Virus record (IMG/VR): IMGVR_UViG_3300017917_003822
Location: 206,630 to 270,629 of that record
Origin: a virus
DNA length: 64,000 nt
Reading direction: 5' to 3' (one strand)
The position numbers and the translations under genes are program-made. Of this stretch, positions 3,725-53,444 are shown piece after piece. Under the pieces are notes generated by a model that saw nothing but the letters and a program-made list of their open reading frames with translations, ran no database searches and was not told the origin of the DNA. Within the stretch, counting starts at the first letter, position 1, and each line of letters starts with the position of its first letter.

Positions 3725-3799
3725 TTTTTATTGCTTATAACGTTCCCACGCTTGGCGAAGTGGCGGATGTAAAGCACTAAATTTTTAATTAAACAAATT

Positions 3800-4018
3800 A
3801 TGAAAAAGAACAAAACTCGAAATATAGACAAACAACTTCAAAAATTGTTATATGAACAATATGGTGAAGAATACACTCAATGGTATATGAAAACTTTTGA
3901 TGTTAAATTATATTTTGATGGAGCGGAAACATCAGATAGAGGTTATTTAACAGATAGAGAGTTTGACGAATGGAAAGAAGAAAAATGGAAACAATTTTTG
4001 TCCAAGTATGGTTATTAA
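3800..4018 (+). CDS. hypothetical protein (AT-rich island)
   Basis: 72-aa ORF preceded by the TATAACGTT...CTAAATTT motif. Confidence 0.3.
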   Translation: MKKNKTRNIDKQLQKLLYEQYGEEYTQWYMKTFDVKLYFDGAETSDRGYLTDREFDEWKEEKWKQFLSKYGY

Positions 4019-6603: not shown

Positions 6604-7683
6604 ATGAAATACGACATAAACATATTAAATAGCTATATTGATAATGGGCTGCTGGAAAAAAACCCACATCCAACATTACCTCTCGATATCTACAACTACT
6701 CCCGGGAGTGCCAATTTTCACGTCATTGGGATGAGATAACCCTCAACATGAGGGGCACAGTCTTAGACAGAGATGGAAATGTAGTAGCAAGAACATTTTC
6801 AAAATTCTTCAATCTGGAAGAACATCAACCCGAAGAAATTCCAAATGAATCATTTGACGTTTTTGAAAAAATGGATGGTTCACTGGGTATTTTATTTAAT
6901 TACAACGATCAGTGGATATTTGCAACTAAGGGATCATTCTCGTCAGATCAATCAATCAGAGGTAAGGAAATTTTGGAGAAGTACGACTATCAAAGTCTAG
7001 CGAAAGATTGCACATATTTATTCGAGATCATATATCCAGAAAATAGAATTGTCGTCAGCTACGATTTCGAAGATCTAGTACTATTAGCAATCATCAATAA
7101 CGAGGATGGCTATGAATATGACATACACTCGGAGGAGGCGCTTTCTGATGTACTGGATATCAAGGGTTTTAGAATTGTTAAAAAATACCATGGAGTTCAG
7201 GACTATAAGGAGCTTAAGAAAATCATAGATAACAATGCAGAGGGATTCGTCATCAGATTCAAATCTGGTTTCAGAATGAAGATCAAAGGGGAAGAGTATG
7301 TTAGACTCCATCGGCTTCTAACAAACTTCTCGAACATTGACATCTGGGAACTTTTGAAGAATGGGGAGGATCTTGGTAATTTTCTGGACAGAGTTCCTGA
7401 TGAATTTGATCTCTGGGTCAAGAATATTATCTCAGATCTAAGAAGACAGTACCTGGTAATCGAGGAATCAGCACATGAGGTCCATTCATCATTCTTTGTT
7501 GCGAGACCAGATTTTTCGAGAGAAGCGGGAAAGAAAGAATATGCTCTGTGGGTTAAAGAACAAGAAAAGAATTTGCAAGGTATATTATTTTGTCTGTATG
7601 ACGAGAAAAGGTATTCGGATCACATTTGGAAAATGATAAGACCGAAATACCAAAAACCATTTTGGAACAAAATTGAGGATTGA
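6604..7683 (+). CDS. rnlA: ATP-dependent RNA ligase, T4 RnlA (Rnl1) family
   Basis: MRGTVLDRDGNVVARTFSKFFNLEE and FEKMDGSLGILF...ATKGSFSSDQ align with T4 Rnl1 (ECRGIMFEMDGE...EKFFNLNE; TKEDGSL...SKGSIKSEQ). Motif I is KxDGS, motif IV is EGFVIR. Confidence 0.8.
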   Translation: MKYDINILNSYIDNGLLEKNPHPTLPLDIYNYSRECQFSRHWDEITLNMRGTVLDRDGNVVARTFSKFFNLEEHQPEEIPNESFDVFEKMDGSLGILFNYNDQWIFATKGSFSSDQSIRGKEILEKYDYQSLAKDCTYLFEIIYPENRIVVSYDFEDLVLLAIINNEDGYEYDIHSEEALSDVLDIKGFRIVKKYHGVQDYKELKKIIDNNAEGFVIRFKSGFRMKIKGEEYVRLHRLLTNFSNIDIWELLKNGEDLGNFLDRVPDEFDLWVKNIISDLRRQYLVIEESAHEVHSSFFVARPDFSREAGKKEYALWVKEQEKNLQGILFCLYDEKRYSDHIWKMIRPKYQKPFWNKIED

Positions 7684-8326
7684 TATGAAAATTATATTAG
7701 AAAAAAACCAGAATTTATATTTCACGAGTGATACACACTATAATCACTCCAATATTTGCCGGGGAACGTCAAATTGGCCAGGCGGAAGAGGAACCCGAAA
7801 TTTCCATTCACTTGGAGAGATGAACGATGCCATAGTCTCTGGGATCAATTCTATTGTAGGTCCTGACGATTATCTTGTTCATATGGGAGATTGGAGCTTT
7901 GGTGGATTTGAATCTATCATAGAATTCAGAAAAAGAATAGCATGTAAGAACATTATTCTTTTCCTCGGGAATCACGATCATCATATCAGAAACAATAAGG
8001 AAGGTGTTCAAGGATACTTTAGAAAAGTTTCAAGCTACGATGTACTGGATATTAGAAGACCGGAAGGAAAGGAAACTGCTAAATATCAATTTGTATGTTG
8101 TCACTTTCCCATAGCAAGTTGGGACGGCATGAACAAGAAGGTTCCACATCTACATGGTCACGTTCACTTGCCTCCAAATTTAAAAATTCACGAGGGGAGA
8201 GCAATGGACGTTGGAGTAGATGGAAACAATCTACAACCCTACAGCTTAAATGAAATATTAAAGATCATGAAGGATCGTCCAATTAAACATTTGACTTTAC
8301 CAAAAGACCATCACACAGAGGAATAG
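7673..8326 (+). CDS. calcineurin-like metallophosphoesterase (candidate RNA-end healing phosphatase)
   Basis: SDTHYNH, HMGDWSFGG and GNHDHH are metallophosphoesterase motifs. Position between ligase and kinase. Confidence 0.65.
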   Translation: MRIDMKIILEKNQNLYFTSDTHYNHSNICRGTSNWPGGRGTRNFHSLGEMNDAIVSGINSIVGPDDYLVHMGDWSFGGFESIIEFRKRIACKNIILFLGNHDHHIRNNKEGVQGYFRKVSSYDVLDIRRPEGKETAKYQFVCCHFPIASWDGMNKKVPHLHGHVHLPPNLKIHEGRAMDVGVDGNNLQPYSLNEILKIMKDRPIKHLTLPKDHHTEE

Positions 8327-8470
8327 TATGGAAGTAAATGTGGCACAAAGGAGGTTTTGTATCTGGAGATTAGAATTGTGGTGGATCGCTTTTGATTTGC
8401 ACCAATTTCATCCGGAAGGTAGGGTTCATTTAAGAGGTAACTGGTTCTGGAGAATATAAAAACAAGAGAA

Positions 8471-8644
8471 ATGATAACACAAGAAATTTTAAACACTTTT
8501 GTCTTCGATACAATCGGGGGAGAAAAATTTGGGGTCAATGATCCAATAGCTCATGATGAGATTATTGGATACTATCCATCGAGAGAGGAAGCAGAAAAAG
8601 CTTTCATTGAGTACGTAGAAAAAGAAGGTATAATATTCGAATAA
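8471..8644 (+). CDS. small hypothetical protein (57 aa, below ORF-track cutoff)
   Basis: ATG at 8471. Stop overlaps the next start (TAATG). MITQEILNTFVFDTIGGEKFG... Confidence 0.25.
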   Translation: MITQEILNTFVFDTIGGEKFGVNDPIAHDEIIGYYPSREEAEKAFIEYVEKEGIIFE

Positions 8645-9090
8645 TGGAAAATTCAAGAACTGGATACAGTATAATTAAACCAACCATGTTTCTCATAAGA
8701 GGAATCCCAGGATCTGGTAAATCGACATTTGCAAATCACATCTGGAACGAGTATGCAATCTGCGAAGCAGACAAATACTTCATAGACAAGGAAACTGGTG
8801 AATATAAATTTGATGCCTCTAAGCTGAAGGATGCGCATGAATGGTGCAGAAATGAAGTTGAGAACAGAATGAAAGAACATCATCTTAATCCACAGTACTA
8901 TCCTGAAATAGCAGTGTCCAATACATTCACCCAAGAATGGGAAATGCAAAATTATCTGGATCTTGCTGATAAGTATGGTTATCAGGTTGTTTCTTTGATA
9001 GTGGAGAACCGACACGGAGGATCGAACGTTCACAACGTTCCGGAAGAAACCTTGGATAGAATGAGACAAAGATTTGAAATTAAACTATAA
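8644..9090 (+). CDS. P-loop polynucleotide 5'-kinase-like protein (T4 Pnk kinase-domain-like)
   Basis: Walker A GIPGSGKST. Overall pattern resembles the T4 Pnk kinase domain (ISDTNL...; ...DRMRQRF). Confidence 0.6.
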   Translation: MENSRTGYSIIKPTMFLIRGIPGSGKSTFANHIWNEYAICEADKYFIDKETGEYKFDASKLKDAHEWCRNEVENRMKEHHLNPQYYPEIAVSNTFTQEWEMQNYLDLADKYGYQVVSLIVENRHGGSNVHNVPEETLDRMRQRFEIKL

Positions 9091-16417: not shown

Positions 16418-17560
16418 ATGGAAAGAAAATTAGCAAGTATACAGAAAATAGGAAAAGTTCTGCCTATAGAGGGAGCAGATGCAATCGAGATGGTAATGGT
16501 TAACTCGTGGAAGGTCGTTTCTAAGAAGGATGAATTCAAGGAAGGTGACTATTGCGTTTATTTTGAAATTGATTCATTTCTTCCAATTAGAGAGGAATTT
16601 GAGTTCTTGAGAAAATCCTCCTATAGAAAGATGGGGGATCTTGAGGGATTCAGACTAAAAACCATAAAACTTAGAGGACAGGTTAGTCAGGGGCTTTGTT
16701 TACCAATCTCCATATTGGAGGGAGATGGTGAAATGAAAATTGGAATCAGCAAGCAACCTTGGGGAGATCAATTACAGCTTGGTCCTTATGACGATGCTCT
16801 TGTTATTCAAGAAGGAGTTGATGTCACAGAACATTTGGGAGTTGTTAAATTTGAACCACCTATACCGGCTGAACTTGCAGGAAAGGTTAAAGGAAATTTC
16901 CCTGGTTTCATCAGAAAAACAGACGAGGAAAGAATCCAGAATATGACGAAGCAATTTGAGGAGATGAAGTCACATCAATACTACATCACGGAAAAACTTG
17001 ACGGTAGTTCAGCAACTTACTATTTTAGAGACGGGGTTTTCGGTGTCTGTTCAAGAAACCTTGAGTTAGCGGATCCTGGAGAATTTGTACCTGGTACTAT
17101 CATTGGTGAAGATGGTGTCGAAAGACCCAAAAAAGAAAATACATTCTGGAAGGTTGCTAGAGAGCTAAAGATAGCAGAAAAACTAGGATCTCTTAATCAA
17201 AATTACGCAATCCAGGGGGAGCTTATTGGGGAAGGAGTGCAAGGAAATCCTTACAAGATCAAAGGACACACACTTAGAATATTTAATGTATTCAATATCG
17301 ATCAACAGGAGTATCTGGGACTTGATGAAATGAGGGATTTTCTTTCGAAGGTTAATGTTGACGATTCACCATTGGAATTGGTTCCTGTCATTGATGAAAA
17401 CTACAAGCTGCATGGAACCATCGAGGAAATTCTACAATATGCTGAGGGTAAATCAGTTCTTCATAATGAGGCCGAGAGAGAAGGAATTGTTATCAGAAAC
17501 AAAGACAAGAGCATCTCATTCAAGGCTATTTCTAATAAATTCTTGCTAAAGGAAAAATAG
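16418..17560 (+). CDS. second ATP-dependent RNA ligase (Rnl5/DraRnl-like: N-terminal OB-like domain + KxDG nucleotidyltransferase)
   Basis: Motif I ITEKLDGSS, motif IV EGIVIRNK, motif V KAISNKF. N-terminal ASIQKIGKVLPIEGADAIEMV...WKVVSKKDEFKEGDYCVYFEIDSFLP. Confidence 0.55.
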   Translation: MERKLASIQKIGKVLPIEGADAIEMVMVNSWKVVSKKDEFKEGDYCVYFEIDSFLPIREEFEFLRKSSYRKMGDLEGFRLKTIKLRGQVSQGLCLPISILEGDGEMKIGISKQPWGDQLQLGPYDDALVIQEGVDVTEHLGVVKFEPPIPAELAGKVKGNFPGFIRKTDEERIQNMTKQFEEMKSHQYYITEKLDGSSATYYFRDGVFGVCSRNLELADPGEFVPGTIIGEDGVERPKKENTFWKVARELKIAEKLGSLNQNYAIQGELIGEGVQGNPYKIKGHTLRIFNVFNIDQQEYLGLDEMRDFLSKVNVDDSPLELVPVIDENYKLHGTIEEILQYAEGKSVLHNEAEREGIVIRNKDKSISFKAISNKFLLKEK

Positions 17561-20525: not shown

Positions 20526-21329
20526 ATGGAGATAAAAAATTTTAATACCTGGATAACTGAATCTGAAGACCCGGATAATGGTATAGTAAACAAGGACCAC
20601 ATAGATAAATTAATCAACGATGTGGATTTTTTAAAAAGAGTACCCAAGGGAGATCTACGTTTTGAGGTTCTTAAAAACGGTCAGCAACCACCATTAAAGT
20701 TTTATCTAATTAGGATAATGACGCATGGAAGCCTCTATAGACAAATAAACAGGCTGCTGGATGAAACCGGATTTGATGTTGTACCCGATATGGTTGGTAA
20801 TTATATTACAATTACAATTTTAATTGATGATAGCCTTCCCGGAGGCGATTTTAAAATCAAACAGCTATATGACTGGAGTGAAAGACATAATATGACTGTT
20901 TTATCAAACCCGAAGAACTATGATCAATTAAAAAACGTTGTAGAGAAATCAATTGAACATATTTTCGAGAAAATAAAACAGGTTAGATTGATTGTCCCAT
21001 CAAACATAAGAAAGATTGAAGGATTCTCGGATAAGATTAAGGAGAGCGTAAAGTCCCTTTACGATGGTATAATTGATAATTTTATTGAGAATGGAAGTAT
21101 ACCAAACGAACTAATTGATGATGATATTCTGACTGAAATTTTCACTAAAACTCTTCATGAAAATCCACAGTACATTGAGAAAATAAACAATCTACCTCCA
21201 TCTGCTAAGAAGAGGATTTTTAAAAGCTCGTTGGATCTTTTCAAGGACGATAATATTGAAATAAATCAAAAAACTCTGAACGGCATAGTGGCGTTCTTCA
21301 AAGTTAAAAAAACATGGGGGATGATATGA
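20526..21329 (+). CDS. hypothetical protein
   Basis: 267-aa ORF. Confidence 0.4.
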   Translation: MEIKNFNTWITESEDPDNGIVNKDHIDKLINDVDFLKRVPKGDLRFEVLKNGQQPPLKFYLIRIMTHGSLYRQINRLLDETGFDVVPDMVGNYITITILIDDSLPGGDFKIKQLYDWSERHNMTVLSNPKNYDQLKNVVEKSIEHIFEKIKQVRLIVPSNIRKIEGFSDKIKESVKSLYDGIIDNFIENGSIPNELIDDDILTEIFTKTLHENPQYIEKINNLPPSAKKRIFKSSLDLFKDDNIEINQKTLNGIVAFFKVKKTWGMI

Positions 21330-21724
21330 CAAAAAATCTAAAAACCTTTGAAAGCTGGAATAGTAAGGACGACGAAATAGAGAATCTTCAGGAGTTGCTT
21401 AATTATAACATGGATTATATTAGAGAACTCTTCGATGAGAGAACCATGGAATCGGATTTCTTGGAAATTTCGGAACCGGAAGAATTTGTGGTTGAATATT
21501 GGCCTAAATCTTTGGATGGAGCCATTCCAAAGAGAATCTCATATTATATAGACGAGATCGCGGAGAAAATATCGGAGCGAATGAAAAATAAAATCGATTG
21601 GAGATTCTCACCTAACGGCAACGTGCAGAGAATAATTTTCGAACTCGATAGTCCTGTAAATACGGAACATTTGGAACTCGTCAGAAAATTTAATAAAACA
21701 AAAGAAAAACTAAGATACACATAA
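21314..21724 (+). CDS. hypothetical protein
   Basis: 136-aa ORF. Confidence 0.35.
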   Translation: MGDDMTKNLKTFESWNSKDDEIENLQELLNYNMDYIRELFDERTMESDFLEISEPEEFVVEYWPKSLDGAIPKRISYYIDEIAEKISERMKNKIDWRFSPNGNVQRIIFELDSPVNTEHLELVRKFNKTKEKLRYT

Positions 21725-21754
21725 ATCCGGATTTAACCCCGGATTTATTTTTTT
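21722..21754 (+). terminator. rho-independent terminator
   Basis: 9-bp stem TAAATCCGG/CCGGATTTA, 8-nt loop, then a T7 run. It overlaps the stop codon. Confidence 0.5.
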
Positions 21755-21779
21755 GTAACGGATTCATTTATTACATTTG
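21748..21779 (+). promoter_or_regulatory. promoter-like motif copy 5
   Basis: TTTTTTT-GTAACGGA-N9-TACATTTG, immediately after terminator 21722-21754. Confidence 0.4.
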
Positions 21780-21797
21780 CCAGATAATATAGAAAAA

Positions 21798-22085
21798 ATG
21801 GATCATCTTTCAAAATACTTATCTTCGCCAAAACCGGAGGAAATAGTAGTCCAGTCCAGATATTCATATGTTGATCAATTACATTTGGAGAATAGTAATG
21901 TGGATATCGAGAGTGCACTTAAGAACGATATAGCTAGAAAAATGGTTGATATTTTAATCGAGAGGAATCTGATTGAATTTAAAATGATTAACACAACAAA
22001 TCCATACGAAGCTTCAGTTACGATTTCAGGTAAAATAAAAGTCCAACCTCCGTATTTAGAATTTAAACTTTCAGGAATGATATGA
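21798..22085 (+). CDS. hypothetical protein
   Basis: Track start 21777 is TTG inside the -7 box. ATG at 21798 gives MDHLSKY... Confidence 0.35.
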   Translation: MDHLSKYLSSPKPEEIVVQSRYSYVDQLHLENSNVDIESALKNDIARKMVDILIERNLIEFKMINTTNPYEASVTISGKIKVQPPYLEFKLSGMI

Positions 22086-22525
22086 TCAAGAAATCTGTAA
22101 ATATAGTTAATAAAAAGGCAAAATTTGAGTTCGAGTTCATCAGGGTTTTAGATGCTGGAATTCAGCTAACCGGATCCGAGGTCAAATCAATTAGGGATTC
22201 AAAAGTGGATTTTACAGATTCATATTGCTATTTTGTAAATAATGAGTTATTCATTAAGAATTTACACATTTCGTCCAATGACTATCGTTATTCACACGAT
22301 CCCAAAAGAGAAAGAAAACTACTTCTTAAAAGGAGAGAACTAGATAAGCTACAGAAGGATCTCGTTAAAAATATGAGCATAGTTCCATATAGAATTCACG
22401 AAAACGGAAAATCTCTACTAAAAATAGAAATAGCTTTGGGTAGAGGAAAAAAACTTTATGATAAAAGAGAAACTATCAAAAGTAGGGACATCGAAAGAGA
22501 AACACAAAAACAACTTAAGGGATAA
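22082..22525 (+). CDS. smpB: SsrA-binding protein SmpB homolog
   Basis: NKKAKFEFEFIRVLDAGIQLTGSEVKSIRDSKVDFTDSY, HDPKRERKLLLKRRELDKL and GRGKKLYDKRETIK align closely with bacterial SmpB. Confidence 0.85.
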   Translation: MIKKSVNIVNKKAKFEFEFIRVLDAGIQLTGSEVKSIRDSKVDFTDSYCYFVNNELFIKNLHISSNDYRYSHDPKRERKLLLKRRELDKLQKDLVKNMSIVPYRIHENGKSLLKIEIALGRGKKLYDKRETIKSRDIERETQKQLKG

Positions 22526-22541
22526 TCAAAATTTATTTATC

Positions 22542-23093
22542 ATGGAAAAGAAAATCAACTTCGTCATCAGCAAAGAAGATAAGATTCGTTGGATCATAGA
22601 AAAACACGTTCAGACAAATCACCAATATTCAGAATATTTACCGTACGAGTTTCATTTAAGAATGGTAGCTCAGGTTGCTAAAGACTTCGACTACCTTATA
22701 CCATCCGAAGAAATGAGGGAGTCGATATTGATAGCTGCATACGGTCACGATCTTATCGAGGATACCAGAGTTTCCTATAATGATGTTAAATCTATCCTCG
22801 GCGTAACTGTGGCTGATATTATCTATGCATTAACCAATGAGAAGGGTAAAAATAGAAAGGAGAGAGCAAATTCTAAATATTATGAGGGCATCTTAGAAAC
22901 TCCAGGTGCAGTTTTTGTTAAACTCTGCGATCGTATTGCCAATGTTCAGTATTCTAAAATGACCAAAAGCAGAATGTTCGAAATGTACAAGAAGGAGAAT
23001 CCAGAATTTCTAACCAGTCTGGGATTTCCTAAGGGACAAAGTCACCCATTGGAGCCAATGAGTAAATATTTGTTAAATTTATTTGAGGATTAA
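22542..23093 (+). CDS. HD-domain hydrolase resembling small alarmone (p)ppGpp hydrolases (Mesh1/SpoT-HD-like)
   Basis: AAYGHDLIEDT...LGVTVADIIYALTNEKG...VFVKLCDRIANV fits the RelA/SpoT HD pattern (HDxxED...LADRLHN). ATG at 22542; the track extension overlaps smpB. Confidence 0.5.
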   Translation: MEKKINFVISKEDKIRWIIEKHVQTNHQYSEYLPYEFHLRMVAQVAKDFDYLIPSEEMRESILIAAYGHDLIEDTRVSYNDVKSILGVTVADIIYALTNEKGKNRKERANSKYYEGILETPGAVFVKLCDRIANVQYSKMTKSRMFEMYKKENPEFLTSLGFPKGQSHPLEPMSKYLLNLFED

Positions 23094-23096
23094 ATT

Positions 23097-23375
23097 ATGA
23101 AACATAAGGCCATCAGAGGTAACAGGGGTAACGGAAAACCAGCTAATCCCTACGCATATCCGGTTTCAAGTAACAGTACCACATATTATGGAATGACCCT
23201 GAGGGACCATTTTGCTGGGATAGCAATGCAGGGTCTGATCAGTAATTTTAAAGGTGATGTTTCCGCTAATTATGAAATTGTATCTATTGCTTCCTACAAG
23301 ATGGCCGATGCCATGCTAAAGGAAAGATGCATAGAGAGATCATTAGATACTGATGACGACCAATCAAAATTTTAA
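23097..23375 (+). CDS. hypothetical protein
   Basis: 92-aa ORF. Confidence 0.35.
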   Translation: MKHKAIRGNRGNGKPANPYAYPVSSNSTTYYGMTLRDHFAGIAMQGLISNFKGDVSANYEIVSIASYKMADAMLKERCIERSLDTDDDQSKF

Positions 23376-23384
23376 CGTTTATAA

Positions 23385-23417
23385 TTTTTTAATCCCGAAT
23401 GATATTCATATATTTAG
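23385..23417 (+). promoter_or_regulatory. promoter-like motif copy 6
   Basis: TTTTTT-AATCCCGA-N10-TATATTTAG. Confidence 0.35.
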
Positions 23418-23435
23418 GAAACTAAAATTAAAAGG

Positions 23436-23843
23436 ATGAAAAGATTAGAAAATTTTTTAGATACTGCCTCGACATGGAAGGTTTTTATTTTTGGATGGGT
23501 ATTTTCTGGAGTATTGGCCTTTCTATTATTTCAGTTCCTTCCAGACGGTACAGAATTGGAGAGAGACGCATTTATTAATTTTAAGATTGGTGCCACGATG
23601 GGGATTATATTAGGATTAGTTTTCGCTCTTCTGAACTCAATGGCCAAAAAATCTCAAAAATTTTGGGATTACTCAAAAGAAGTTAAATCGTTAATAGATA
23701 AGGCGGAAACTAAGGAGGAATTAAGTTCCATTTATAAAAATGAATTTAATACTTTGAGAAATTTATCGATGGGCAACCCACACTCAATGGAACTAACAAG
23801 ATTGTTCGCAATCTTGCAAACAAAACATAAATATGGAAAATAA
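23436..23843 (+). CDS. membrane protein
   Basis: Two hydrophobic segments near the N-terminus. Confidence 0.4.
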   Translation: MKRLENFLDTASTWKVFIFGWVFSGVLAFLLFQFLPDGTELERDAFINFKIGATMGIILGLVFALLNSMAKKSQKFWDYSKEVKSLIDKAETKEELSSIYKNEFNTLRNLSMGNPHSMELTRLFAILQTKHKYGK

Positions 23844-24501
23844 AAAGAAACATTTGGATGTGGAAAATCCAATGGCAATTCTTGCTGCTTTTACTCAAAT
23901 GATTTCTGATCCAGGTATCGGAAATTACTTTGGTGGTCTCATCAAAGAAATGGATCCAGAATCAAAGTACCCACACGACAAATTAGGTGGCGGCTATGAA
24001 TTACGTGAAATTGAAATTCTTGCAGAGGGTGGTCAATTCATCGTAAATAATCGAGAAAAATACTCACATTTATACCATAACGGATTAAAAGTTTCTGATG
24101 AAGTCTTTCGTAGAGGTGGAACCGGTGGTAAATTCAAGGATGGTTATTGTAAACTAATTCATTACATTCAAAAGGAGCCTCATACTGAAAAACGTCACGG
24201 ATTTGATTTTGGTACTCATGTTATCATTAATCACTTAGGTGATATTAAGCTGAAAGGAGAAGGTATATCCTCATACCCGGACCATATAGGAGGACACTTG
24301 GGATCTCTTGGTAATTATGTATATGACTTAAGAACAGGTGAAGCGATTGCGGTGAAAAGCTCAACCTCCATTACTGGCTCTAATTGTATCATAATCGATC
24401 ACCGTTACGAATGGTACAATAAGGATATCTCAATGCCTCTAGGCATTTACCAAATAGATTTCTGGACAGCAGAAATCAAAAAAATTGACGACGTAAAATA
24501 A
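23833..24501 (+). CDS. hypothetical protein
   Basis: 222-aa ORF. Confidence 0.4.
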   Translation: MENKKKHLDVENPMAILAAFTQMISDPGIGNYFGGLIKEMDPESKYPHDKLGGGYELREIEILAEGGQFIVNNREKYSHLYHNGLKVSDEVFRRGGTGGKFKDGYCKLIHYIQKEPHTEKRHGFDFGTHVIINHLGDIKLKGEGISSYPDHIGGHLGSLGNYVYDLRTGEAIAVKSSTSITGSNCIIIDHRYEWYNKDISMPLGIYQIDFWTAEIKKIDDVK

Positions 24502-24508: not shown

Positions 24509-25009
24509 ATGAAATTTAACTATATAGAAGGGGATTTAATCAAGTTAGCTAAAGAGGGTAAATTTGATGTCATCACACACGGATGCAACTGTTTATCCAC
24601 AATGGGAGCCGGAATTGCACCACAAATGGCAAAAGCTTTCGGGTGCGACAAATTTGAGATGGAGTTAATCGGACCAGATATCAATAAACTGGGAAACATC
24701 GACTACCAAACCATGGTTTTAGGTGAGAATGCAGTTTGGTCACTGGAGGATTTTAAAAATAATAGAAATGAACCTGAATTGATTGTTATTAATTCATACA
24801 CTCAATATCACTACGGAGGTCAAAAACCTCTAGATTATGAGGCATTGACATTGTGTCTCCGTAAAATCAATCATCAATTCAAAGGAAAGCATATCGGATT
24901 ACCAAAGATTGGAGCTGGATTGGCAGGAGGAAACTGGAATCGAATAGAGCACATCATACAAACGGAATTAAAAGACATGGAGGTGTCAGTGGTAATCTAT
25001 AAAGGATAA
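24509..25009 (+). CDS. Macro domain protein (ADP-ribose binding/processing)
   Basis: GDLIKL...DVITHGCNCLSTMGAGIA and IGLPKIGAGLAGGNW resemble macro-domain motifs (GDIT..DAIVNAAN..GGGV; AFPAISTG). Confidence 0.5.
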   Translation: MKFNYIEGDLIKLAKEGKFDVITHGCNCLSTMGAGIAPQMAKAFGCDKFEMELIGPDINKLGNIDYQTMVLGENAVWSLEDFKNNRNEPELIVINSYTQYHYGGQKPLDYEALTLCLRKINHQFKGKHIGLPKIGAGLAGGNWNRIEHIIQTELKDMEVSVVIYKG

Positions 25010-26364: not shown

Positions 26365-27138
26365 ATGAAAGACGCACTAGGCGACAGAATGAAAGAGTTC
26401 TATGAGGATAGAACTAGAATCAAACTCCCAAGGAGAACCTACACAATTATCCGCATCGACGGAAAAGCATTTCACACTTACACAAAAGGATTAGAAAGAC
26501 CGTTTGACGAAGGTCTAATTGAAGACATGAACGGCACGACTGCATACCTGTGCAAGAATATACAGGGTGCTAAATTCGGTTACGTCCAATCCGATGAGAT
26601 CTCACTAGTATTAACAGATTTTGATGATCTAAGTACACACGCATGGTTTGATAACAATCTTCAAAAGATGGCTTCTGTTGCAGCATCGATGGCCACATCT
26701 GAATTTAATCGATTGAGATTGATGAGAGATTCAAAGAACGGAGCACTTGATATTCGAGAGCTAAACCTTTTTAAAATGGCACAGTTTGATGCTAGAGTGT
26801 TTCAAATTCCATTTATCGATGAAGTTGAAAACTACTTCATCTGGAGACAACAGGATGCAGTAAGGAATAGTATATCATCAGTTGCACAAAGCCTATACAG
26901 TCCAAAGCAACTACACGGGGTTAAGACTGATCAGATGCAGGAGATGATCTTTCAAAAAGGAATTAATTGGAACGACTATGATTTCCGTCTGAAAAGAGGT
27001 GCAGTTATCGGGAAGGTCCCAGTTGAGCTAACCAGCGGGGACGTAACTTACACAAGGAATAGATGGATGGTAATAGACACTCCAACATTTACTCAGGATA
27101 GAGAATTCATTAAAAATCTTTTAAAAATAGAAAAATGA
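26365..27138 (+). CDS. Thg1-like protein (tRNA-His guanylyltransferase family, 3'-5' nucleotidyltransferase)
   Basis: TIIRIDGKAFHTY, YVQSDEISLVL and FDARVFQIP...IWRQQDAVRNS align with the Thg1 N-terminal catalytic core (VVRLDGRNFHRF; YGQSDEYSFVF; FDGRVVVYP...SWRQADCHINN). Confidence 0.8.
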   Translation: MKDALGDRMKEFYEDRTRIKLPRRTYTIIRIDGKAFHTYTKGLERPFDEGLIEDMNGTTAYLCKNIQGAKFGYVQSDEISLVLTDFDDLSTHAWFDNNLQKMASVAASMATSEFNRLRLMRDSKNGALDIRELNLFKMAQFDARVFQIPFIDEVENYFIWRQQDAVRNSISSVAQSLYSPKQLHGVKTDQMQEMIFQKGINWNDYDFRLKRGAVIGKVPVELTSGDVTYTRNRWMVIDTPTFTQDREFIKNLLKIEK

Positions 27139-27527
27139 AAAGTAAATTTTACTTTCAAGCAGGAAAGGTCCATTCAATTACATTAACTCCAGAAAGGGAA
27201 TCCGGTTACGAATGGTTTGAAGCAATTCCAGAACAATCCAAAAAGTTCCTAGGATTTACAATCGGTACCATACCATCAGTTCCAGCTGGATGGTCTGATT
27301 ATGAAGATGGCAGATTACGAAAAGAATCATCATATTTCGAACAGTACTCCTGGTATCGTGTTGACGAGGTAAATAAAAAAGTCTTTAATAAAGCAAACAT
27401 TAGCATTCGCTTTAATTATAAGGAGAGTTATGGAATGAATTTTAATTCTAATGAGGAGGCTCAACAGTGGATTGACGATTTAATCAAAGAAACCGGATTG
27501 GAATTTTCAGTAATCGTTAACAAATAA
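27135..27527 (+). CDS. hypothetical protein
   Basis: 130-aa ORF. Confidence 0.35.
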   Translation: MKSKFYFQAGKVHSITLTPERESGYEWFEAIPEQSKKFLGFTIGTIPSVPAGWSDYEDGRLRKESSYFEQYSWYRVDEVNKKVFNKANISIRFNYKESYGMNFNSNEEAQQWIDDLIKETGLEFSVIVNK

Positions 27528-30667: not shown

Positions 30668-31153
30668 ATGAATAAAGAAAATCAACCATGGCTAAGAGCC
30701 AGCATTAAAATAACAAAACCAATAGTTCTAATTGATATGGACGGGGTTATTTGTGATTTTGATAAGAGAGCTAAAGAACTGGAGGCACAAGGTATTAAAG
30801 GTCACAGTCTTTTCAAACATCCGAGTGCATACAGAGCTTTAGAACCCATAGAAGGAGCGGTTGATGCATGGCACGATTTACAGGATAAGTACGAGACCTA
30901 TATTTTAAGTACTCCACCTTGGAGTAATCCTGATGCTTGGTCAGAAAAAAGAATCTGGGTTCAGCAGTATCTAGGTGACAGTGCTAAGAAAAAACTGATC
31001 CTATGTCACAACAAAGGTCTAGTTATCGGTGATTATCTTATCGATGATCGAATTGCCAACGGTGTAGCTGATTTCAAGGGGGAACACATTCACTTTGGAA
31101 CAGATAAGTTTCCTGGATGGGAAAGTGTACTTGAGTATCTTAAATCTAAATAA
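30668..31153 (+). CDS. 5'(3')-deoxyribonucleotidase (NT5C-family HAD phosphatase)
   Basis: VLIDMDGVICDF (DxDG HAD motif I) and LIDDR align with cytosolic 5'(3')-deoxyribonucleotidase. Confidence 0.7.
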   Translation: MNKENQPWLRASIKITKPIVLIDMDGVICDFDKRAKELEAQGIKGHSLFKHPSAYRALEPIEGAVDAWHDLQDKYETYILSTPPWSNPDAWSEKRIWVQQYLGDSAKKKLILCHNKGLVIGDYLIDDRIANGVADFKGEHIHFGTDKFPGWESVLEYLKSK

Positions 31154-31452: not shown

Positions 31453-32196
31453 ATGTTTAAATTTTACGAAGTAGGTGGAAAAGTTAGAGATGAGATTTTA
31501 GGTCTAGAATCTAAGGACGTTGATTATGTTGCAGTTCCGAACGATGGGCTATTGGAAAAGAATCATGACGCTTATGAGATGTTTGTCATTCTCGAAACCT
31601 ATCTGCACAATCAGAATTTTGAAATTTTTCTAACAACACCAGAATGCTTTACGATCAGAGCAAAATTCCCGAAGGATCATAAATATCAAGGGGTTGCTGA
31701 TTTCGTGATGGCAAGGAAAGAGGTTGGATACATTCAGGGTACAAGAACTCCGATCATTAAACCTGGAACACTATATGATGATCTTGAAAGAAGAGACTTT
31801 ACTCTTAATGCACTAGCAAGAGATGAAGACGGTCAAATTATTGATTATTTCAATGGTTTAAACGATCTAAATGAGAAAAAGCTTGTAACCCCTCTGGAAG
31901 CAAAAACAACGATGCTAGACGATCCCTTAAGGCTTCTAAGAGCTTTCAGATTTTCAATCACCAAGGGATTTGAGATATCACCGGACATTATGAATACCTG
32001 CACGAGCAACGAGGTTATAGATAAGTTGGAGACTGTTGTTTCTCAGGAAAGAATCCGGGAGGAGATTTTTAAAATGACGAAGCATGACACATTAGGTACG
32101 TTGGAACTATTCGAGAGAATAAGAGTTCTAAACCCAAGAATTTTGAAAATTATATTCAGTAACGGTATGTGGCTAAAACCAACAAACGAGAAATAA
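31453..32196 (+). CDS. class II nucleotidyltransferase, CCA-adding enzyme / poly(A) polymerase head-domain type
   Basis: N-terminal YEVGGKVRDEILGLESKDVDYV matches the GG.VRD..LG...D.D head-domain signature. Confidence 0.55.
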   Translation: MFKFYEVGGKVRDEILGLESKDVDYVAVPNDGLLEKNHDAYEMFVILETYLHNQNFEIFLTTPECFTIRAKFPKDHKYQGVADFVMARKEVGYIQGTRTPIIKPGTLYDDLERRDFTLNALARDEDGQIIDYFNGLNDLNEKKLVTPLEAKTTMLDDPLRLLRAFRFSITKGFEISPDIMNTCTSNEVIDKLETVVSQERIREEIFKMTKHDTLGTLELFERIRVLNPRILKIIFSNGMWLKPTNEK

Positions 32197-35796: not shown

Positions 35797-37239
35797 ATGA
35801 CAACTATTTTATCTTTGGTATCTTACATAGTACCTGCAATTATCGGAATCTTTATTTTAATTTATATTCTCTCATTAAGGAGAATTGTACCAACCAATGT
35901 GGTTCACATCGTTCAAAGAGGAAACCAAACTGTTTCATACGGAACAAATAAACAATCAAATGTTTATTATGAATGGCCAAGCTGGCTACCTAAATTAGGG
36001 GTAACTGTTCGTGTTCTTCCTGTATCTAACTTCGATATTGATTTGAAACGTTATGAAGCTTATGATAAAGATCGTGTACCATTTGTCGTCGACGTTAAAG
36101 CTTTCTTCCATATTTCGAATACAAACATTGCAGCTGAAAAGGTTGAATCTTTCGAAGAACTTAGAGGCCAATTAGAAAATGTAGTTCAAGGTGCGGTTCG
36201 TTCAATCTTAGCTAAATCTAAATTGGAAGAGATCATGGAGGAACGTTCAGTCTTTGGTAAACAATTTACCGACGCAGTCAACACAGATTTACAAAACTGG
36301 GGTGTTGAAGCAATAAAAAGTATTGAATTAATGGACGTAAGAGACGCTGACGGATCTCACGTAATCCAACAGATCATGGCAAAACGTATGTCAGCAATCG
36401 ACATGGAATCAAGAACTGAAGTTGCTAAAAACCAGAAACTTGCGAAACAGGCAGAGCTTGAAGCCAAAAAAGAGATTGATGTAACTACGGCGGAGACTGA
36501 GAGAATTGCCGGAGAAGCACAAGCACAATCTCAACAAGCAATCGGTATCGCCAAAGCAGAATCGATGAAGAAAACTGGTATTGCCGAACAAGAGTCAATT
36601 TCAGAAATTGCCAGAGCCGAAAGAGCCACTGCAGAACAGCAAATGGAGGTTGTTAAGGTCAACCAGGTAAAACAAGCAGAGATCGACAGAGAGCGTGAAA
36701 TTATTACTGCCGAACAGGAAAAACAAAAAATGGAAATCCAGGCACAGGCTGATAAATTTAGAATTGAAACCGAAGCTGCTGCTCAATTAGAAGCAAAAAG
36801 AAAAGAGGCTGAGGCTGTTAAAACCGTCGGATCCGCAGAAGCAGAGGTTATTAAGGCTAAGGGTATTTCAGAGGCTGAATCTAAAAAGGCAATGGAATTG
36901 GCAGGGGTAACTGCACAAACAACACTGGCGAAAGAAATTGGTGAGAACAAGCCTTATCAAGAGTACTTAATTAAAGTTAAGGAAGTTGAAGTTAGTCAAG
37001 TTGTTGGAGTTGCTCAGTATGAGTCTATGGCAAAAGCATTATCAGCAGCTGACTTAAAGCTATTAGTTAACAGTGGAGATGTTCATTCTGGAATTGGTAA
37101 GTTATCTGACTTATTTACATCAAAGGGTGCATCTCAGATTAACGGGTTACTTGAAGGTCTAAAACAAACCGACGAGGGCAAGAATTTATTAGAGATGCTG
37201 AACGGCTTAACTTCGTCTAAGGTTACTAAATCTGAATAA
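35797..37239 (+). CDS. SPFH/band-7 (flotillin-like) domain protein with long coiled-coil
   Basis: N-terminal TM, then an SPFH-like region (VVHIVQRGNQ...VPFVVDVKAFFHISN...). A long E/A/K/Q-rich heptad region follows. Confidence 0.65.
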   Translation: MTTILSLVSYIVPAIIGIFILIYILSLRRIVPTNVVHIVQRGNQTVSYGTNKQSNVYYEWPSWLPKLGVTVRVLPVSNFDIDLKRYEAYDKDRVPFVVDVKAFFHISNTNIAAEKVESFEELRGQLENVVQGAVRSILAKSKLEEIMEERSVFGKQFTDAVNTDLQNWGVEAIKSIELMDVRDADGSHVIQQIMAKRMSAIDMESRTEVAKNQKLAKQAELEAKKEIDVTTAETERIAGEAQAQSQQAIGIAKAESMKKTGIAEQESISEIARAERATAEQQMEVVKVNQVKQAEIDREREIITAEQEKQKMEIQAQADKFRIETEAAAQLEAKRKEAEAVKTVGSAEAEVIKAKGISEAESKKAMELAGVTAQTTLAKEIGENKPYQEYLIKVKEVEVSQVVGVAQYESMAKALSAADLKLLVNSGDVHSGIGKLSDLFTSKGASQINGLLEGLKQTDEGKNLLEMLNGLTSSKVTKSE

Positions 37240-49495: not shown

Positions 49496-49864
49496 ATGGA
49501 AAAAGAATTTATACCTTATGAACAGGCATTAGCTTTAAAAGAATTAGGATTTGATGAACCATGTTTTTGGTTATATGATGGAAAAATACTTAAAACTCAA
49601 ATTATACCAAGTAGTAATTCTGATTTTAAATATATTGATATAGTTCAAGCACCACTTAAACAACAAGCATTTAGATGGTTTAGAGAAAAGTATAAATTAT
49701 GTGGTTTAATTGAGATTGGAACACAAGAGTTTTCTTATCAAGTTTTTAATAATAAAGGGAATAGACAACTTGGAACTGAACCTATAAGCTATAATGGAAC
49801 CTACGAAGAAGCAGAACTTGAATGTTTAAAGAAACTAATTGAAATTGTTAAAGATAAGAAATAA
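49496..49864 (+). CDS. paralog family B member 1
   Basis: MEKEFIPYEQALALKELGFDEPCF...FRWFREKYKL...GTYEEAELECLKKLIEIVKDKK. Confidence 0.4.
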   Translation: MEKEFIPYEQALALKELGFDEPCFWLYDGKILKTQIIPSSNSDFKYIDIVQAPLKQQAFRWFREKYKLCGLIEIGTQEFSYQVFNNKGNRQLGTEPISYNGTYEEAELECLKKLIEIVKDKK

Positions 49865-50271
49865 TGGAAAAAGAATTTGTGCCTTATGAACAAGCACTAA
49901 CTTTAAAAGAACTTGGTTTTGATGAACCTTGTTTAGGTTACTACTTAACTAATTTGTTAACAAACGAAGTAAAACTATTTATTGATAATAGAACAGGACT
50001 TTCATCATTTGAAAAAACTACACCTGCTCCAACATTCTCTCAAGTATTTAGATGGTTTAGAGAGAAGTATAACTTGAGAGGATTTATTGGATTTAGACCA
50101 AATGTAAAAAAATTTGATTGTCATGTTTATGATATGTCTCTGTCTGGCAAAGAATATGTTGAACAAAGAACTATGGAAGAGTTTAACAAAGACCCTAAAG
50201 TTGGAACCTACGAAGAAGCAGAACTTGAATGTTTAAAGAAACTAATTGAAATTGTTAAAGATAAGAAATAA
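49864..50271 (+). CDS. paralog family B member 2
   Basis: C-terminal ~80 nt (including stop and next start) is identical to member 1 (49797-49875 vs 50204-50282). Confidence 0.4.
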   Translation: MEKEFVPYEQALTLKELGFDEPCLGYYLTNLLTNEVKLFIDNRTGLSSFEKTTPAPTFSQVFRWFREKYNLRGFIGFRPNVKKFDCHVYDMSLSGKEYVEQRTMEEFNKDPKVGTYEEAELECLKKLIEIVKDKK

Positions 50272-50777
50272 TGGAAAAAGAATTTATTCCTTACGAACAA
50301 GCATTAGTTTTAAAAGAATTAGGATTTGATGAACCTTGTTTTAAATATGTTTATATTGGAGATACTGGAAATAACTTTGATCATTATCTTGAAGTAGAAC
50401 CATCAAAGGCAAAAAATTATAATGAGGATGATTTATGTATATCACAGCCAACTTACTCAGCAGCATTTAGATGGTTTAGAGAGAAGTATAATATTCATCA
50501 TTCAATGAGACCCGTGGTTGGATCTAAAAATGGATACGACTCATATCCAATTTTGGGGTGGGAATCAGATATTTTTGCTACAAATCAAGGAACTCAAAAT
50601 TCATATTACATGGGATATCCGGTCTGTGAGTGGTTCACAGCAACACTAGATAATTTTGACGAGGGTGACACATTGAAGGATTTGAATTTAGATCCACTTA
50701 AATATGAAGAGGCAGAGCTTAAATGTTTAAAAAATATTATAAAATACGTCAAAAAAGAAAAGCTGAATGGAAGATAA
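50271..50777 (+). CDS. paralog family B member 3 (diverged C-terminus)
   Basis: Same N-terminus MEKEFIPYEQALVLKELGFDEPCF and the FRWFREKYN motif. Confidence 0.4.
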   Translation: MEKEFIPYEQALVLKELGFDEPCFKYVYIGDTGNNFDHYLEVEPSKAKNYNEDDLCISQPTYSAAFRWFREKYNIHHSMRPVVGSKNGYDSYPILGWESDIFATNQGTQNSYYMGYPVCEWFTATLDNFDEGDTLKDLNLDPLKYEEAELKCLKNIIKYVKKEKLNGR

Positions 50778-50894: not shown

Positions 50895-50982
50895 AGTCAG
50901 GTGACTGGTGTCTGCACAGTAAGCTGTGTGTTGGTTCGATCCCAACGAGGTGTAAATTCAGGTTCGAATCCTGTCCTGACTA
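50895..50982 (+). tRNA. tRNA-like gene U1 (non-canonical: two T-loop-like hairpins)
   Basis: 7-bp acceptor AGTCAGG/CCTGACT, D-like hairpin ACTG-GTGTCTGCA-CAGT, internal GTTGG-TTCGATC-CCAAC, T arm CAGG-TTCGAAT-CCTG, discriminator A. No encoded CCA. 88 nt. Confidence 0.4.
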
Positions 50983-51335
50983 CTAAGGTTAAACATTGAA
51001 TACCTTTGTAAATGTTAGAAGTGAGGAAGAGTACCTCAATAAAAAATAAGTTCAATTAAGAACAAATAATTTACATAAAGATACTATCAGTAATGGTAGA
51101 TGTGTTGTTCCCTTGAGAAAGGAATGGGCAAAGGTGGCTAATTAAAGTTAACAACAACTCCACACAACACAAATGAGTTCTCAGCAAGTAGTTCGAAAAG
51201 CTATGCAGTTTTAAAACTCTTATGGAGCCTTACAAACTAGAACTACGTGACCCTACTCCACTTGGGCGATTCACAGATGAGTTGTTAAGACAGGTTTGAA
51301 TCCTGTATTGTCCTACCGAAAGAGGGTGCTAAAAA

Positions 51336-51457
51336 AGTCAGGTGGCAGAATGGTAAACGCATGCTCCATCGGTGATACATCTCCTCGATGGACATGGTAT
51401 TTATTAAGTTCGCTTAATAATGTAAAACTGGTGCAGGTTCGAATCCTGCCCTGACTT
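51336..51457 (+). ncRNA. tRNA-like gene U2 with ~45-nt extra structure (122 nt)
   Basis: Same acceptor AGTCAGG/CCTGACT and T arm GCAGG-TTCGAAT-CCTGC. Leu-like D region GCAG-AATGGTAAA-CGC. Internal 11-bp hairpin with 14-nt loop, plus a 7-bp hairpin with a UUCG tetraloop. Confidence 0.4.
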
Positions 51458-51474
51458 CTATTAACTACAAAGAA

Positions 51475-52155: not shown

Positions 52156-52325
52156 GGTCGGGTGGCGGAATTTAATCGATTGCTGAAATTGGCCAATCTA
52201 CGAATCGATTATCGGTAGACGTTATGAGAAAACCCAAATACTGAGGGCGTCCATCTAGGGAGTGATAAAGGCAATACTAGTTTACCAATCAGGCTCCCGT
52301 CCAGGTTCGAATCCTGTACCGACTA
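52156..52325 (+). ncRNA. tRNA-like gene U3 with ~95-nt palindrome-rich insertion (170 nt)
   Basis: Acceptor GGTCGGG/ACCGACT (one mismatch) and T arm CCAGG-TTCGAAT-CCTGT. Leu-like GCGGAAT D region. Insert contains paired palindromes AATCGATT x2 and ATTGGCCAAT. Confidence 0.35.
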
Positions 52326-52564: not shown

Positions 52565-52579
52565 CTAAAAATTGGAAGT

Positions 52580-53431: not shown

Positions 53432-53444
53432 CAAAAATAAAGTT

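Follow-up and report, generated by a model that had tools for sequence, protein, structure and literature searches.

Why a phage would carry the ribosome-rescue protein SmpB with an HD-domain hydrolase directly behind it is the question raised by this locus. The two genes lie on the plus strand at positions 22082-22525 and 22542-23093 of the window, the 64-kb stretch of DNA that was analysed. A preliminary description of this DNA treated them as a meaningful pair that joins ribosome rescue to alarmone degradation in order to manipulate the host. Neither gene is new in phages, SmpB having already been published from huge phages (Al-Shayeb et al. 2020, Nature 578:425; PMC7162821) and small alarmone hydrolases from Salmonella phages (PMC7229694), and the pair does not constitute a new type of system. 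What the two genes are, what surrounds them and how far they belong together are examined in turn.

The source is a jumbo phage, represented by a contig of ~270 kb. Its phage origin is apparent from a head maturation protease gene in the window, and relatives were found on IMG/VR contigs of 319-373 kb. No DNA-level match to positions 21000-24500 was found among 50,697 phage records, so that relatives are recognised at the protein level only. The host is most likely a member of the Bacteroidota, since the cellular SmpBs nearest to the phage protein are almost all from this group (41-53% identity) and no Shine-Dalgarno sequence is present in the spacer before the HD gene. In the phage collection searched, the closest complete genome with both genes is LR756501 (735 kb), whose SmpB has 51.7% identity to that of the window. 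We take LR756501 to be the largest genome of the 2020 study by Al-Shayeb et al.

Identity of SmpB and of the hydrolase

Judged by its sequence, the 147-aa ORF at 22082-22525 is an intact, canonical SmpB (SsrA-binding protein), as had been proposed. The ORF matches PF01668 with an E of 6.7e-45 (153 bits vs a cut-off of 27), and it scores above both the curated NCBIfam cut-off of TIGR00086 (156.6 bits vs 119.1) and the cut-off of NF003843 (152.5 bits vs 130). The solved SmpB 7ljp aligns with it end to end (query 7-146, E 8e-38). Loss of the C-terminal tail had been raised as a point against a functional protein; the full-length product keeps this tail from G122 through K133 (G122-K123-K124, Y126, D127-K128-R129 and K133, in the pattern GKK..Y.DKR..K), with 18 residues after DKR compared to 21 in E. 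coli and 15 in T. thermophilus. Work on the E. coli and T. thermophilus proteins has shown that the G-K-K hinge, the aromatic/His position, D-K-R and the basic helix are the elements that entry into the decoding centre requires. All of the functional positions that were checked, tail included, are conserved over a phage clade of 58-100% identity.

The phages of Al-Shayeb et al. have SmpBs of the same protein family, genomes of >200 kb and a mostly uncultured status, as is the case here, and several of the SmpBs annotated in the supplement resemble, as judged by eye, the 58-62% relatives found in this work (PMC7162821). That study lists the gene only; the exact SmpB of the window and the sub-clade with a downstream hydrolase are not described there. 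Experimental work on any phage SmpB was not found in the literature searched.

The gene for the HD protein follows immediately, in agreement with the preliminary description. The SmpB stop codon (TAA, 22523-22525) is separated from the ATG at 22542 by an A/T-rich spacer of 16 nt. The resulting start of the 183-aa protein was chosen by gene callers on six independent metagenome contigs and agrees with the lengths of the homologues; there is no support for a longer ORF beginning at 22458. The protein contains the signatures GHDLIEDT and KLCDRIAN. The HD and ED elements of the HD...ED...LADR signature that had been noted earlier are therefore present as described, and the element given as LADR reads LCDR. 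The protein consists of one domain (residues 17-162) and has no synthetase domain.

Among solved sequences, the best match of the HD protein is the P. aeruginosa small alarmone hydrolase (6yvc, 2.8e-10), and further matches are Drosophila Mesh1 (3nqw, 2.4e-8) and human MESH1. Residues H38, H69-D70, E73-D74, D130 and N134 align with H35, H61-D62, E65-D66, D122 and N126 of MESH1. Across 53 diverse homologues and human MESH1, the residues H38, H69, D70, E73, K127, D130 and N134 are invariant, and D74 is nearly so (49 of the 53 homologues). The position of MESH1 R24, presumably the substrate-binding arginine of the first motif, is occupied by H27 in the phage protein and by histidine or glutamine in 41 and 8 of the 53 homologues, respectively. 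Because the P. aeruginosa enzyme, as aligned with the phage protein, is also without an arginine at this position, that residue may not define the whole family.

The predicted fold leads to the same assignment. When the AlphaFold model (pLDDT 88.9) was compared with the PDB using Foldseek, ranks 1-45 were all small alarmone hydrolases, MESH1, RelH, Aph1, Rel, SpoT and RelA, and the best match was the P. aeruginosa enzyme with a TM of 0.75-0.77. Generic HD proteins appeared from rank 46 on only, with E>0.3. The competing possibility of a dNTPase or phosphodiesterase had been mentioned with the original Mesh1/SpoT-like assignment; neither family occurs among the sequence matches or the 45 best Foldseek matches. 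From these comparisons the HD protein is predicted to be a hydrolase of the RelA/SpoT (RSH) type, a single-domain enzyme of the small-alarmone-hydrolase kind, and not a dNTPase or phosphodiesterase.

The likeness to characterised enzymes has limits. The P. aeruginosa enzyme (6yvc, 6z3n, 6z3o) and Mesh1/MESH1 (3nqw, 3nr1, 5vxa) have the same fold (TM 0.70-0.77) and have metal-binding and catalytic residues in common with the window hydrolase, but the identity is only 18-27%, the R24 position is a histidine and the phage family has a conserved motif of its own, H-x3-N-H-x-Y, plus R105, R108 and Y113-Y114. The score against Pfam HD_4 (PF13328) is 20.9 bits vs a gathering cut-off of 27.2; this cut-off is passed by some family members (P0402 with 29.6 bits and P0352 with 31.1 bits), and a precomputed PF13328 match exists on several close homologues. 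The family comprises 4,287 representatives at 50% clustering.

Stand-alone hydrolases have been characterised from the Salmonella phages SSU5 (PaSpo) and PVP-SE1 (PbcSpo), where they neutralise all toxic synthetases tested (Jimmy et al. 2020, PMC7229694). These enzymes come from lytic phages and were proposed to counter defence based on alarmones or toxic synthetases (PMC7229694). Like the window hydrolase, they are single-domain RSH hydrolases with no adjacent synthetase. At E<=1e-3 the search matched 260 phage records, and Salmonella phages are absent both from the ten most frequent of the 18 genera and from the 40 matches listed, so the window hydrolase probably belongs to another subfamily than PaSpo and PbcSpo. 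No RelA/SpoT-type synthetase domain was found in the flanking genes (SmpB, a 95-aa ORF and a 92-aa ORF) or in the other window genes tested. A type IV toxin-antitoxin pair, in which a toxic small alarmone synthetase would be matched with a hydrolase antitoxin, was rejected as there is no adjoining synthetase gene.

The RNA repair island and the neighbours of the hydrolase

All of the features described in this section lie on the plus strand. No terminator is predicted between smpB and the HD gene. A terminator-like hairpin with a T-run at 21721-21748 probably bounds the smpB/HD transcription unit on its upstream side, although it is a weak call from a consensus scan that finds no more of these than chance expectation. 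Between the hairpin and smpB lies a small ORF at 21798-22085 (95 aa in the gene calls of related contigs) without a family match, the stop of which overlaps the SmpB start (ATGA); it is conserved only where the SmpB of the relatives is at least 81% identical. On the other side, the 92-aa ORF (23097-23375, phrog_2201) starts 3 nt past the HD gene.

The wider window is, as annotated from its sequence, an RNA/tRNA-repair island with two RNA ligases, a phosphoesterase, a kinase-like protein, Thg1, a CCA-enzyme homologue and a Macro protein. Upstream of smpB, positions 6604-9090 hold an RNA "healing and sealing" cassette, which consists of a T4 Rnl1-type RNA ligase (6604-7683), a phosphoesterase (7673-8326) and a P-loop/polynucleotide-kinase-like protein (8644-9090). 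The second ligase, at 16418-17560, is an ATP-dependent RNA ligase of the DRB0094 family with an N-terminal OB fold (PF21189 1.3e-39; PF09414 5.9e-28), and its match to TIGR02306 has 188.3 bits vs a cut-off of 151.15. Downstream of the hydrolase is a Macro-domain protein (24509-25009; Pfam Macro 3.4e-4; phrog_335 5.9e-46) with a weak likeness to the DarG macrodomain (NF048014 1e-9, below the cut-off). It is followed by a Thg1-like protein of the tRNA-His guanylyltransferase/3'-5' polymerase family (26365-27138; PF04446 3.9e-29; phrog_4717 2.1e-87) and by a 130-aa protein, p130 (27135-27527), a homologue of which is found directly downstream of the HD gene in 6 other lineages. A short tRNA nucleotidyltransferase of 247 aa (PF01743 1.6e-17; phrog_24229 1.3e-58) is encoded at 31453-32196, at a distance of 8.4 kb from the hydrolase. 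The NCBIfam CCA models match this protein over its N-terminal part only, and it corresponds to the head of a CCA-adding enzyme.

The ligase, phosphoesterase and kinase-like protein in a row resemble the Pnkp/Rnl1 system of T4, and the window has further tRNA-end enzymes beside these T4-like genes. The T4 system differs in that it acts on anticodon-loop breaks, and the window hydrolase belongs to another family. To our knowledge, T4 does not have an SmpB.

The neighbours of the hydrolase were compared across 57 hydrolase lineages. Its commonest direct neighbour is the short tRNA nucleotidyltransferase, which is adjacent in 9 of the 57 in both gene orders and lies within 10 kb in 20; in an unbiased subset it is adjacent in 5 of 37 lineages. 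Other frequent neighbours are RNA ligases and kinase-like genes. These counts ignore shared ancestry and, because the region is loosely syntenic, the proximity of the hydrolase and the CCA-enzyme homologue may partly reflect inheritance. Nothing relevant to a link between them was found in the literature searched.

The arrangement recalls E. coli Cca in outline. In Cca, the nucleotidyltransferase head and a C-terminal HD phosphatase domain are parts of one protein, and in the phages a CCA head and an HD-superfamily phosphohydrolase occur as neighbouring genes. Unlike Cca, the phage genes are separate, and the phage HD protein has an HDxxED signature and the RelA/SpoT hydrolase fold. The HD domain of Cca reportedly has an "HD...LGK"-type motif with 2',3'-cyclic phosphodiesterase and phosphatase activities, as Yakunin et al. 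are said to have described in 2004. None of ten longer homologues of the phage hydrolase is a fusion with a CCA-enzyme head, and their extensions are without a Pfam domain.

Proposed roles and alternative readings

We think it fairly probable that smpB and the HD gene are two co-transcribed auxiliary genes within a long island of genes for RNA/tRNA repair and the maintenance of translation, that SmpB works with the tmRNA of the host, that the hydrolase undoes the products of synthetases and that the adjacency of the two is specific to the lineage. SmpB would bring alanyl-tmRNA, most likely that of the host, to ribosomes stalled on broken or stop-less mRNAs, and such ribosomes should build up in the course of infection as RNA is cut by nucleases of the phage or the host. 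The hydrolase, which is expected to be metal-dependent like MESH1, would act on an adenosine or guanosine nucleotide by taking pyrophosphate or phosphate off its ribose at the 3' (or 2') position, and its likely job would be the reversal of the products of host RelA/SpoT-type synthetases. Candidate substrates are alarmones, either (p)ppGpp or (p)ppApp, and/or tRNA whose CCA end has received a 3'-pyrophosphate from a toxic small alarmone synthetase (CapRel, FaRel2, PhRel). The pyrophosphorylation of tRNA CCA ends by toxic RelA/SpoT-type synthetases is a recognised form of anti-phage immunity (CapRel), and phage hydrolases are a proposed counter-measure to it. MESH1 and ATfaRel have been found to restore the aminoacylation of tRNA that had been pyrophosphorylated by FaRel2 (bioRxiv 10.1101/2021.04.30.441581).

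Given its setting in a repair island, it is plausible that the hydrolase mends tRNA 3' ends that have been pyrophosphorylated or breaks down alarmones made in defence. Since it is repeatedly linked to the tRNA nucleotidyltransferase, to RNA ligases and to kinase-like genes, a role at the tRNA end is no less likely than the mere degradation of ppGpp. The alarmone degradation of the preliminary description thus stands as to enzyme type, with (p)ppGpp as only one of several possible substrates. The repeated occurrence of a large phage-borne hydrolase family beside tRNA-end repair enzymes provides a concrete, testable prediction of substrate.

A less likely alternative is that the enzyme is a plain (p)ppGpp hydrolase that prevents a stringent response in the infected cell and does not act on tRNA. 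The substrates of its nearest solved relatives are (p)ppGpp and/or (p)ppApp, homologues are labelled "(p)ppGpp synthase/HD superfamily hydrolase" by JGI, and the same has been proposed for other phage hydrolases (PMC12846349; PMC7229694). However, the recurrent adjacency to the tRNA nucleotidyltransferase and RNA-repair genes would then be left unexplained, the substrate range of the family is broad (MESH1 acts on NADPH, PAPS and tRNA-3'-PP) and the arginine of the HD1 motif is replaced.

It is rather unlikely that the partner of SmpB is a tmRNA that the phage itself encodes beyond the 64-kb window, instead of the tmRNA of the host. Huge phages are reported to have tmRNAs besides SmpB (PMC7162821), ssrA is present in about 2.3% of phage genomes (PMC9004378) and a tmRNA adjoins a related SmpB on three viral contigs (L017, L018 and L058). 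Against this, no tmRNA was found in the window by ARAGORN or by Rfam, either at gathering thresholds or at E<=5, in accordance with what was seen previously, and none was found within 10 kb of SmpB in close relatives. The complete 735-kb LR756501, which was scanned whole in 15 pieces, also gave no tmRNA by ARAGORN or by Rfam at gathering thresholds, despite having SmpB, the hydrolase and 59 tRNAs (ARAGORN). The use of host tmRNA, as first suggested, is plausible in light of these searches. The other suggestion made at that time was the use of another RNA, with reference to a tRNA-like array. The tRNA-like repeats at 50.9-53.4 kb share an acceptor stem, read from ARAGORN drawings, of 5' (A/G)GTCAGG... 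with ...CCTGAC(T/C) 3', and were rejected as a substitute for the tRNA-like domain of tmRNA because the 3:70 pair is T-A and not the G-U pair of an alanine acceptor; neither ARAGORN nor Rfam called a tmRNA there.

More doubtful is an extension of the preferred reading in which Bacteroidota jumbo phages would have a split form of CCA repair made up of the RSH hydrolase and the head-only nucleotidyltransferase. Here, pyrophosphate or phosphate would be stripped from damaged tRNA 3' ends as a means of countering immunity of the CapRel/FaRel2 type. In the sub-clade with the gene behind SmpB, repair of the acceptor end would be coupled to ribosome rescue by keeping the CCA of tmRNA chargeable.

Taken further, the preliminary description would have the two proteins acting as a dedicated pair, with ribosome rescue and (p)ppGpp degradation suppressing the stalling and stringent responses of the host together, and this we regard as quite unlikely. 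The short spacer without a predicted terminator is consistent with a pair, as are the preservation of the adjacency at 78-100% SmpB identity and the distances of 1-13 kb between the genes in several more distant phages (1 kb in L084, 4.5 kb in L086 and 13.4 kb in LR756501). The adjacency is, however, confined to this one sub-clade with SmpBs at least 78% identical and is lost in sister lineages at 71-73% identity, where no hydrolase was found near SmpB within 10 kb on either side (L012) or within 6 kb (L171). SmpB adjoins the hydrolase in 4 of the 57 lineages, all from one clade, and in only 1 of the 37 in the unbiased subset; elsewhere, the hydrolase adjoins the CCA-enzyme homologue, an RNA ligase, Band7 or p130. 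Additionally, hydrolase homologues are present in Tenacibaculum, Caulobacter and Nodularia phages, groups from which no phage occurs among the SmpB matches. The comparison of gene orders indicates that the adjacency to SmpB is a lineage-specific arrangement and that the two do not form a conserved two-gene module.

It is improbable that the substrate of the hydrolase is some other 2'/3'-phosphorylated nucleotide, as NADPH and PAPS reportedly are for metazoan MESH1, or a defence signalling nucleotide. Complexes of MESH1 with NADPH and PAPS are among the structural matches (5vxa, 9chy), but the neighbours of the hydrolase are RNA-repair genes and no metabolic ones. A decoy SmpB that blocks host trans-translation is very improbable, being conceivable only because no partner RNA was seen, with nothing direct in its favour, and the functional positions kept across the clade, decoding-centre tail included, are the pattern expected of a working protein. 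SmpB has been retained over long evolutionary distances in this clade of giant phages and this retention, along with the tmRNA-less LR756501, makes these phages naturally suited to the question of why extra ribosome-rescue capacity would be needed by a virus.

The SmpB gene and the hydrolase that follows it

The 147-amino-acid product of the gene at 22082-22525 (+ strand) matches the SmpB family PF01668 in Pfam (E = 6.7e-45) and exceeds the curated cut-offs of two NCBIfam equivalog models, TIGR00086 (156.6 bits against 119.1) and NF003843 (152.5 bits against 130). It also aligns end to end with the solved SmpB 7ljp (E = 8e-38), which bears out its earlier description as a convincing SmpB. The protein was aligned with 17 relatives and with the E. 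coli and T. thermophilus SmpB sequences. N10, the EVKS block and the RKLLL block are present, and the C-terminal tail is retained in its entirety (G122-K123-K124, Y126, D127-K128-R129, K133), so the doubt raised in the preliminary description, that the tail might be missing, falls away. The DKR motif is followed by 18 residues; the E. coli protein has 21 at this place and the T. thermophilus protein 15.

The SmpB stop codon ends at 22525 and the ATG of the next gene (22542-23093, + strand) lies at 22542, leaving an A/T-rich spacer of 16 nt in which no Shine-Dalgarno sequence was found. The resulting 183-amino-acid reading is the version called on six independent metagenome contigs bearing an identical SmpB. 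Pfam gave only sub-threshold matches for this protein (HD_4, 20.9 bits; HD, 20.2 bits), and it matched the N-terminal hydrolase part of the NCBIfam spoT_relA model (5.5e-8). The best match among PDB sequences is the P. aeruginosa small alarmone hydrolase (2.8e-10), and further top matches are Drosophila Mesh1, Lmo0812, human MESH1 and Rel/SpoT proteins. An exhaustive HMMER search returned 4,287 cluster representatives at E ≤ 1e-3. When 53 diverse homologues were aligned with human MESH1, Y35, H38, H69, D70, E73, K127, D130 and N134 were invariant and D74 nearly so; the conserved residues correspond to the MESH1 metal ligands and catalytic Glu-Asp, and the position of MESH1 R24 is a histidine or glutamine in the phage family. 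An AlphaFold model built from 58 sequences (mean pLDDT 88.9) was compared with the PDB using Foldseek. Ranks 1-45 are all RelA/SpoT-family hydrolase domains, led by the Pseudomonas enzyme (TM 0.75-0.77), and the first generic HD protein stands at rank 46; a dNTPase or phosphodiesterase identity was rejected on this basis. Because sequence matches, conserved residues and modeled fold agree, the protein is classified as a RelA/SpoT-type small hydrolase, as had been proposed, with a substrate that cannot be read from its sequence.

A head maturation protease gene (phrog_94, 8.3e-34) lies in the window, together with about a hundred small genes that mostly share one strand. The exact SmpB sequence was found on a 270,629-bp contig. 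SmpBs that are 71-78% identical come from IMG/VR viral contigs measuring 319-373 kb, and SmpBs that are 58-62% identical from contigs of 259 and 386 kb whose gene content is phage-like. Among cellular SmpBs, the best matches belong almost exclusively to Bacteroidota (41-53% identity). Since the relatives lie on large viral or phage-like contigs and nearly all the best cellular matches are from Bacteroidota, the gene was probably captured long ago from that phylum and then kept in a jumbo-phage clade. Al-Shayeb et al. 2020 (PMC7162821) reported both tmRNAs and SmpB from huge phages, and their supplement annotates SmpBs in several of them; the resemblance of these to the phage SmpBs described here was judged by eye.

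Gene order and the proposed role of the hydrolase

SmpB and the hydrolase each belong to known kinds, and the preliminary description had treated them as a meaningful pair. The adjacency is real but lineage-specific: at SmpB identities of 78% or more (loci L002-L011, L173 and L174) the two genes are always neighbors, 5-16 nt apart. At 71% (L012, 10 kb read on either side) and 73% SmpB identity (L171, 6-kb flanks) no hydrolase was found near SmpB and other genes follow it, and the distance between the two genes in more remote phages is 1 kb (L084), 4.5 kb (L086) and 13.4 kb (LR756501). There is no evidence that they form a functional unit.

We fetched 80 viral loci via the hydrolase and merged them with other phage loci, and clustering of the hydrolases at 90% identity gave 57 lineages. 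Counted per lineage, uncorrected for shared ancestry and with adjacency defined as at most 200 nt, a homologue of the short, head-only tRNA nucleotidyltransferase of the window (31453-32196) lies within 10 kb of the hydrolase in 20 of the 57 lineages and is adjacent in nine, in both gene orders (gaps of 2-160 nt upstream, 6-7 nt downstream). The corresponding counts are 15 and two for a DRB0094-type RNA ligase, 12 and four (all one clade) for SmpB, and seven and six for a 130-amino-acid protein of no assigned function. When only hydrolase-fetched loci with 5 kb or more on each side are counted (37 lineages), five lineages have the nucleotidyltransferase adjacent to the hydrolase and one has SmpB there, again uncorrected for shared ancestry. 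These counts, which ignore shared ancestry, show that the most persistent partner of the hydrolase is a tRNA 3'-end enzyme and not SmpB. This recurrent linkage in jumbo phages is the more interesting by-product of the analysis, and no report of it was found in the literature searched. It recalls the E. coli Cca protein, in which a nucleotidyltransferase and an HD domain are fused, although the phage HD domain is of the different, RelA/SpoT type.

Other neighbors include, in L170, an RNA ligase adjoining the hydrolase with a TROVE/Ro protein near and, in L168, an adjoining Band7 gene with 2H-phosphoesterase-like and ligase genes near. Band7 homologues lie 35-833 nt from the hydrolase in three other lineages (L210, L168, L240), and the window has an SPFH/Band7 protein at 35797-37239 (+).

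Upon the established gene identities, residues, fold, gene order and distribution, a role can be proposed. The hydrolase would take off the ribose-linked pyrophosphate made by RelA/SpoT-type synthetases, a proposal backed by three lines of published work. After FaRel2 has pyrophosphorylated the CCA end of tRNA, aminoacylation is restored by MESH1 and by ATfaRel (bioRxiv 10.1101/2021.04.30.441581); the phages PVP-SE1 and SSU5 encode stand-alone hydrolases that neutralised all tested toxic synthetases (PMC7229694); and CapRel-type synthetases are anti-phage systems that occur in Bacteroidetes among other phyla. Given this work and the linkage to the CCA enzyme, tRNA 3'-end healing or breakdown of defence-made alarmones is the best-supported role, with plain ppGpp degradation a live rival.

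tmRNA and the use of SmpB

In agreement with the preliminary description, no tmRNA was detected in the window by ARAGORN or by Rfam, at gathering scores or at E ≤ 5, nor did one turn up in close relatives at up to 10 kb from SmpB. As a proxy for the source genome beyond the window we scanned LR756501, a complete 735-kb phage genome whose SmpB and hydrolase are 52% and 37% identical, respectively, and which also encodes a homologue of the CCA enzyme. ARAGORN found 59 tRNAs and no tmRNA in the whole genome, and Rfam found tRNAs and one group I intron and likewise no tmRNA. The sole complete genome examined therefore has an SmpB but no tmRNA of its own, which supports, but does not prove, the presumed use of host tmRNA. 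SmpB would then provide additional ribosome-rescue capacity during infection. In LR756501.1 the SmpB gene (199,509-199,949, - strand) lies within long same-strand tRNA arrays; the array and intron observation covers about 170-229 kb (L178, L179) and L189 25159-25390.

In other viral contigs a tmRNA adjoins SmpB (45-58% identical): L017 (10918-11312, -), L018 (4450-4844, -) and L058 (8783-9136, +). These may be phage-encoded tmRNA-SmpB pairs, and their tmRNAs carry the unusual tags GNILDKMSAIGLIRAEEVVVA and DDTTTYRMAA.

RNA-repair genes and other elements in the window

Judged by its predicted genes, the window is an RNA-repair island. A T4 Rnl1-type RNA ligase (6604-7683, +), a phosphoesterase (7673-8326, +) and a P-loop/polynucleotide-kinase-like protein (8644-9090, +) form a row resembling the T4-style tRNA healing-and-sealing cassette. 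A DRB0094-family RNA ligase (16418-17560; 188 bits, above cut-off), a Thg1-like enzyme (26365-27138) and an NT5C nucleotidase (30668-31153) are also encoded. The Macro-domain protein at 24509-25009 (+; phrog_335, 5.9e-46), whose similarity to the macrodomain of the DarG antitoxin is weak (1e-9, below cut-off), could counter ADP-ribosylating defences.

A family of tRNA-like elements (50895-50983, 51336-51458, 52302-52323, 52487-52565 and 53322-53432, all +) shares a 5' part, GTCAGGTGGCGGAAT, and a T-arm/acceptor 3' part, CAGGTTCGARTCCTGYCCTGAC, the latter motif occurring in five copies against none expected. The middles are variable, often with insertions, and CCA is not encoded. Only two elements reach the Rfam tRNA threshold, and ARAGORN anticodon calls are unstable (Tyr-ATA and Trp-CCA for the same element). 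Loci from other jumbo phages also contain the motif (10 times in L217). On L170, a related 304-kb jumbo-phage contig, ARAGORN calls a tRNA-Pyl with a CTA anticodon at 3770-3841 (+), possibly an amber suppressor. The abutting genes at 49864-50271 and 50271-50777 (+) have a near-identical start (MEKEF[VI]PYEQAL.LKELGFDEPC) and similar ends, and have the appearance of a tandem duplication whose middle part has diverged. The ORF at 54519-54953 (+) resembles, by eye, a cyclophilin-type peptidyl-prolyl isomerase.
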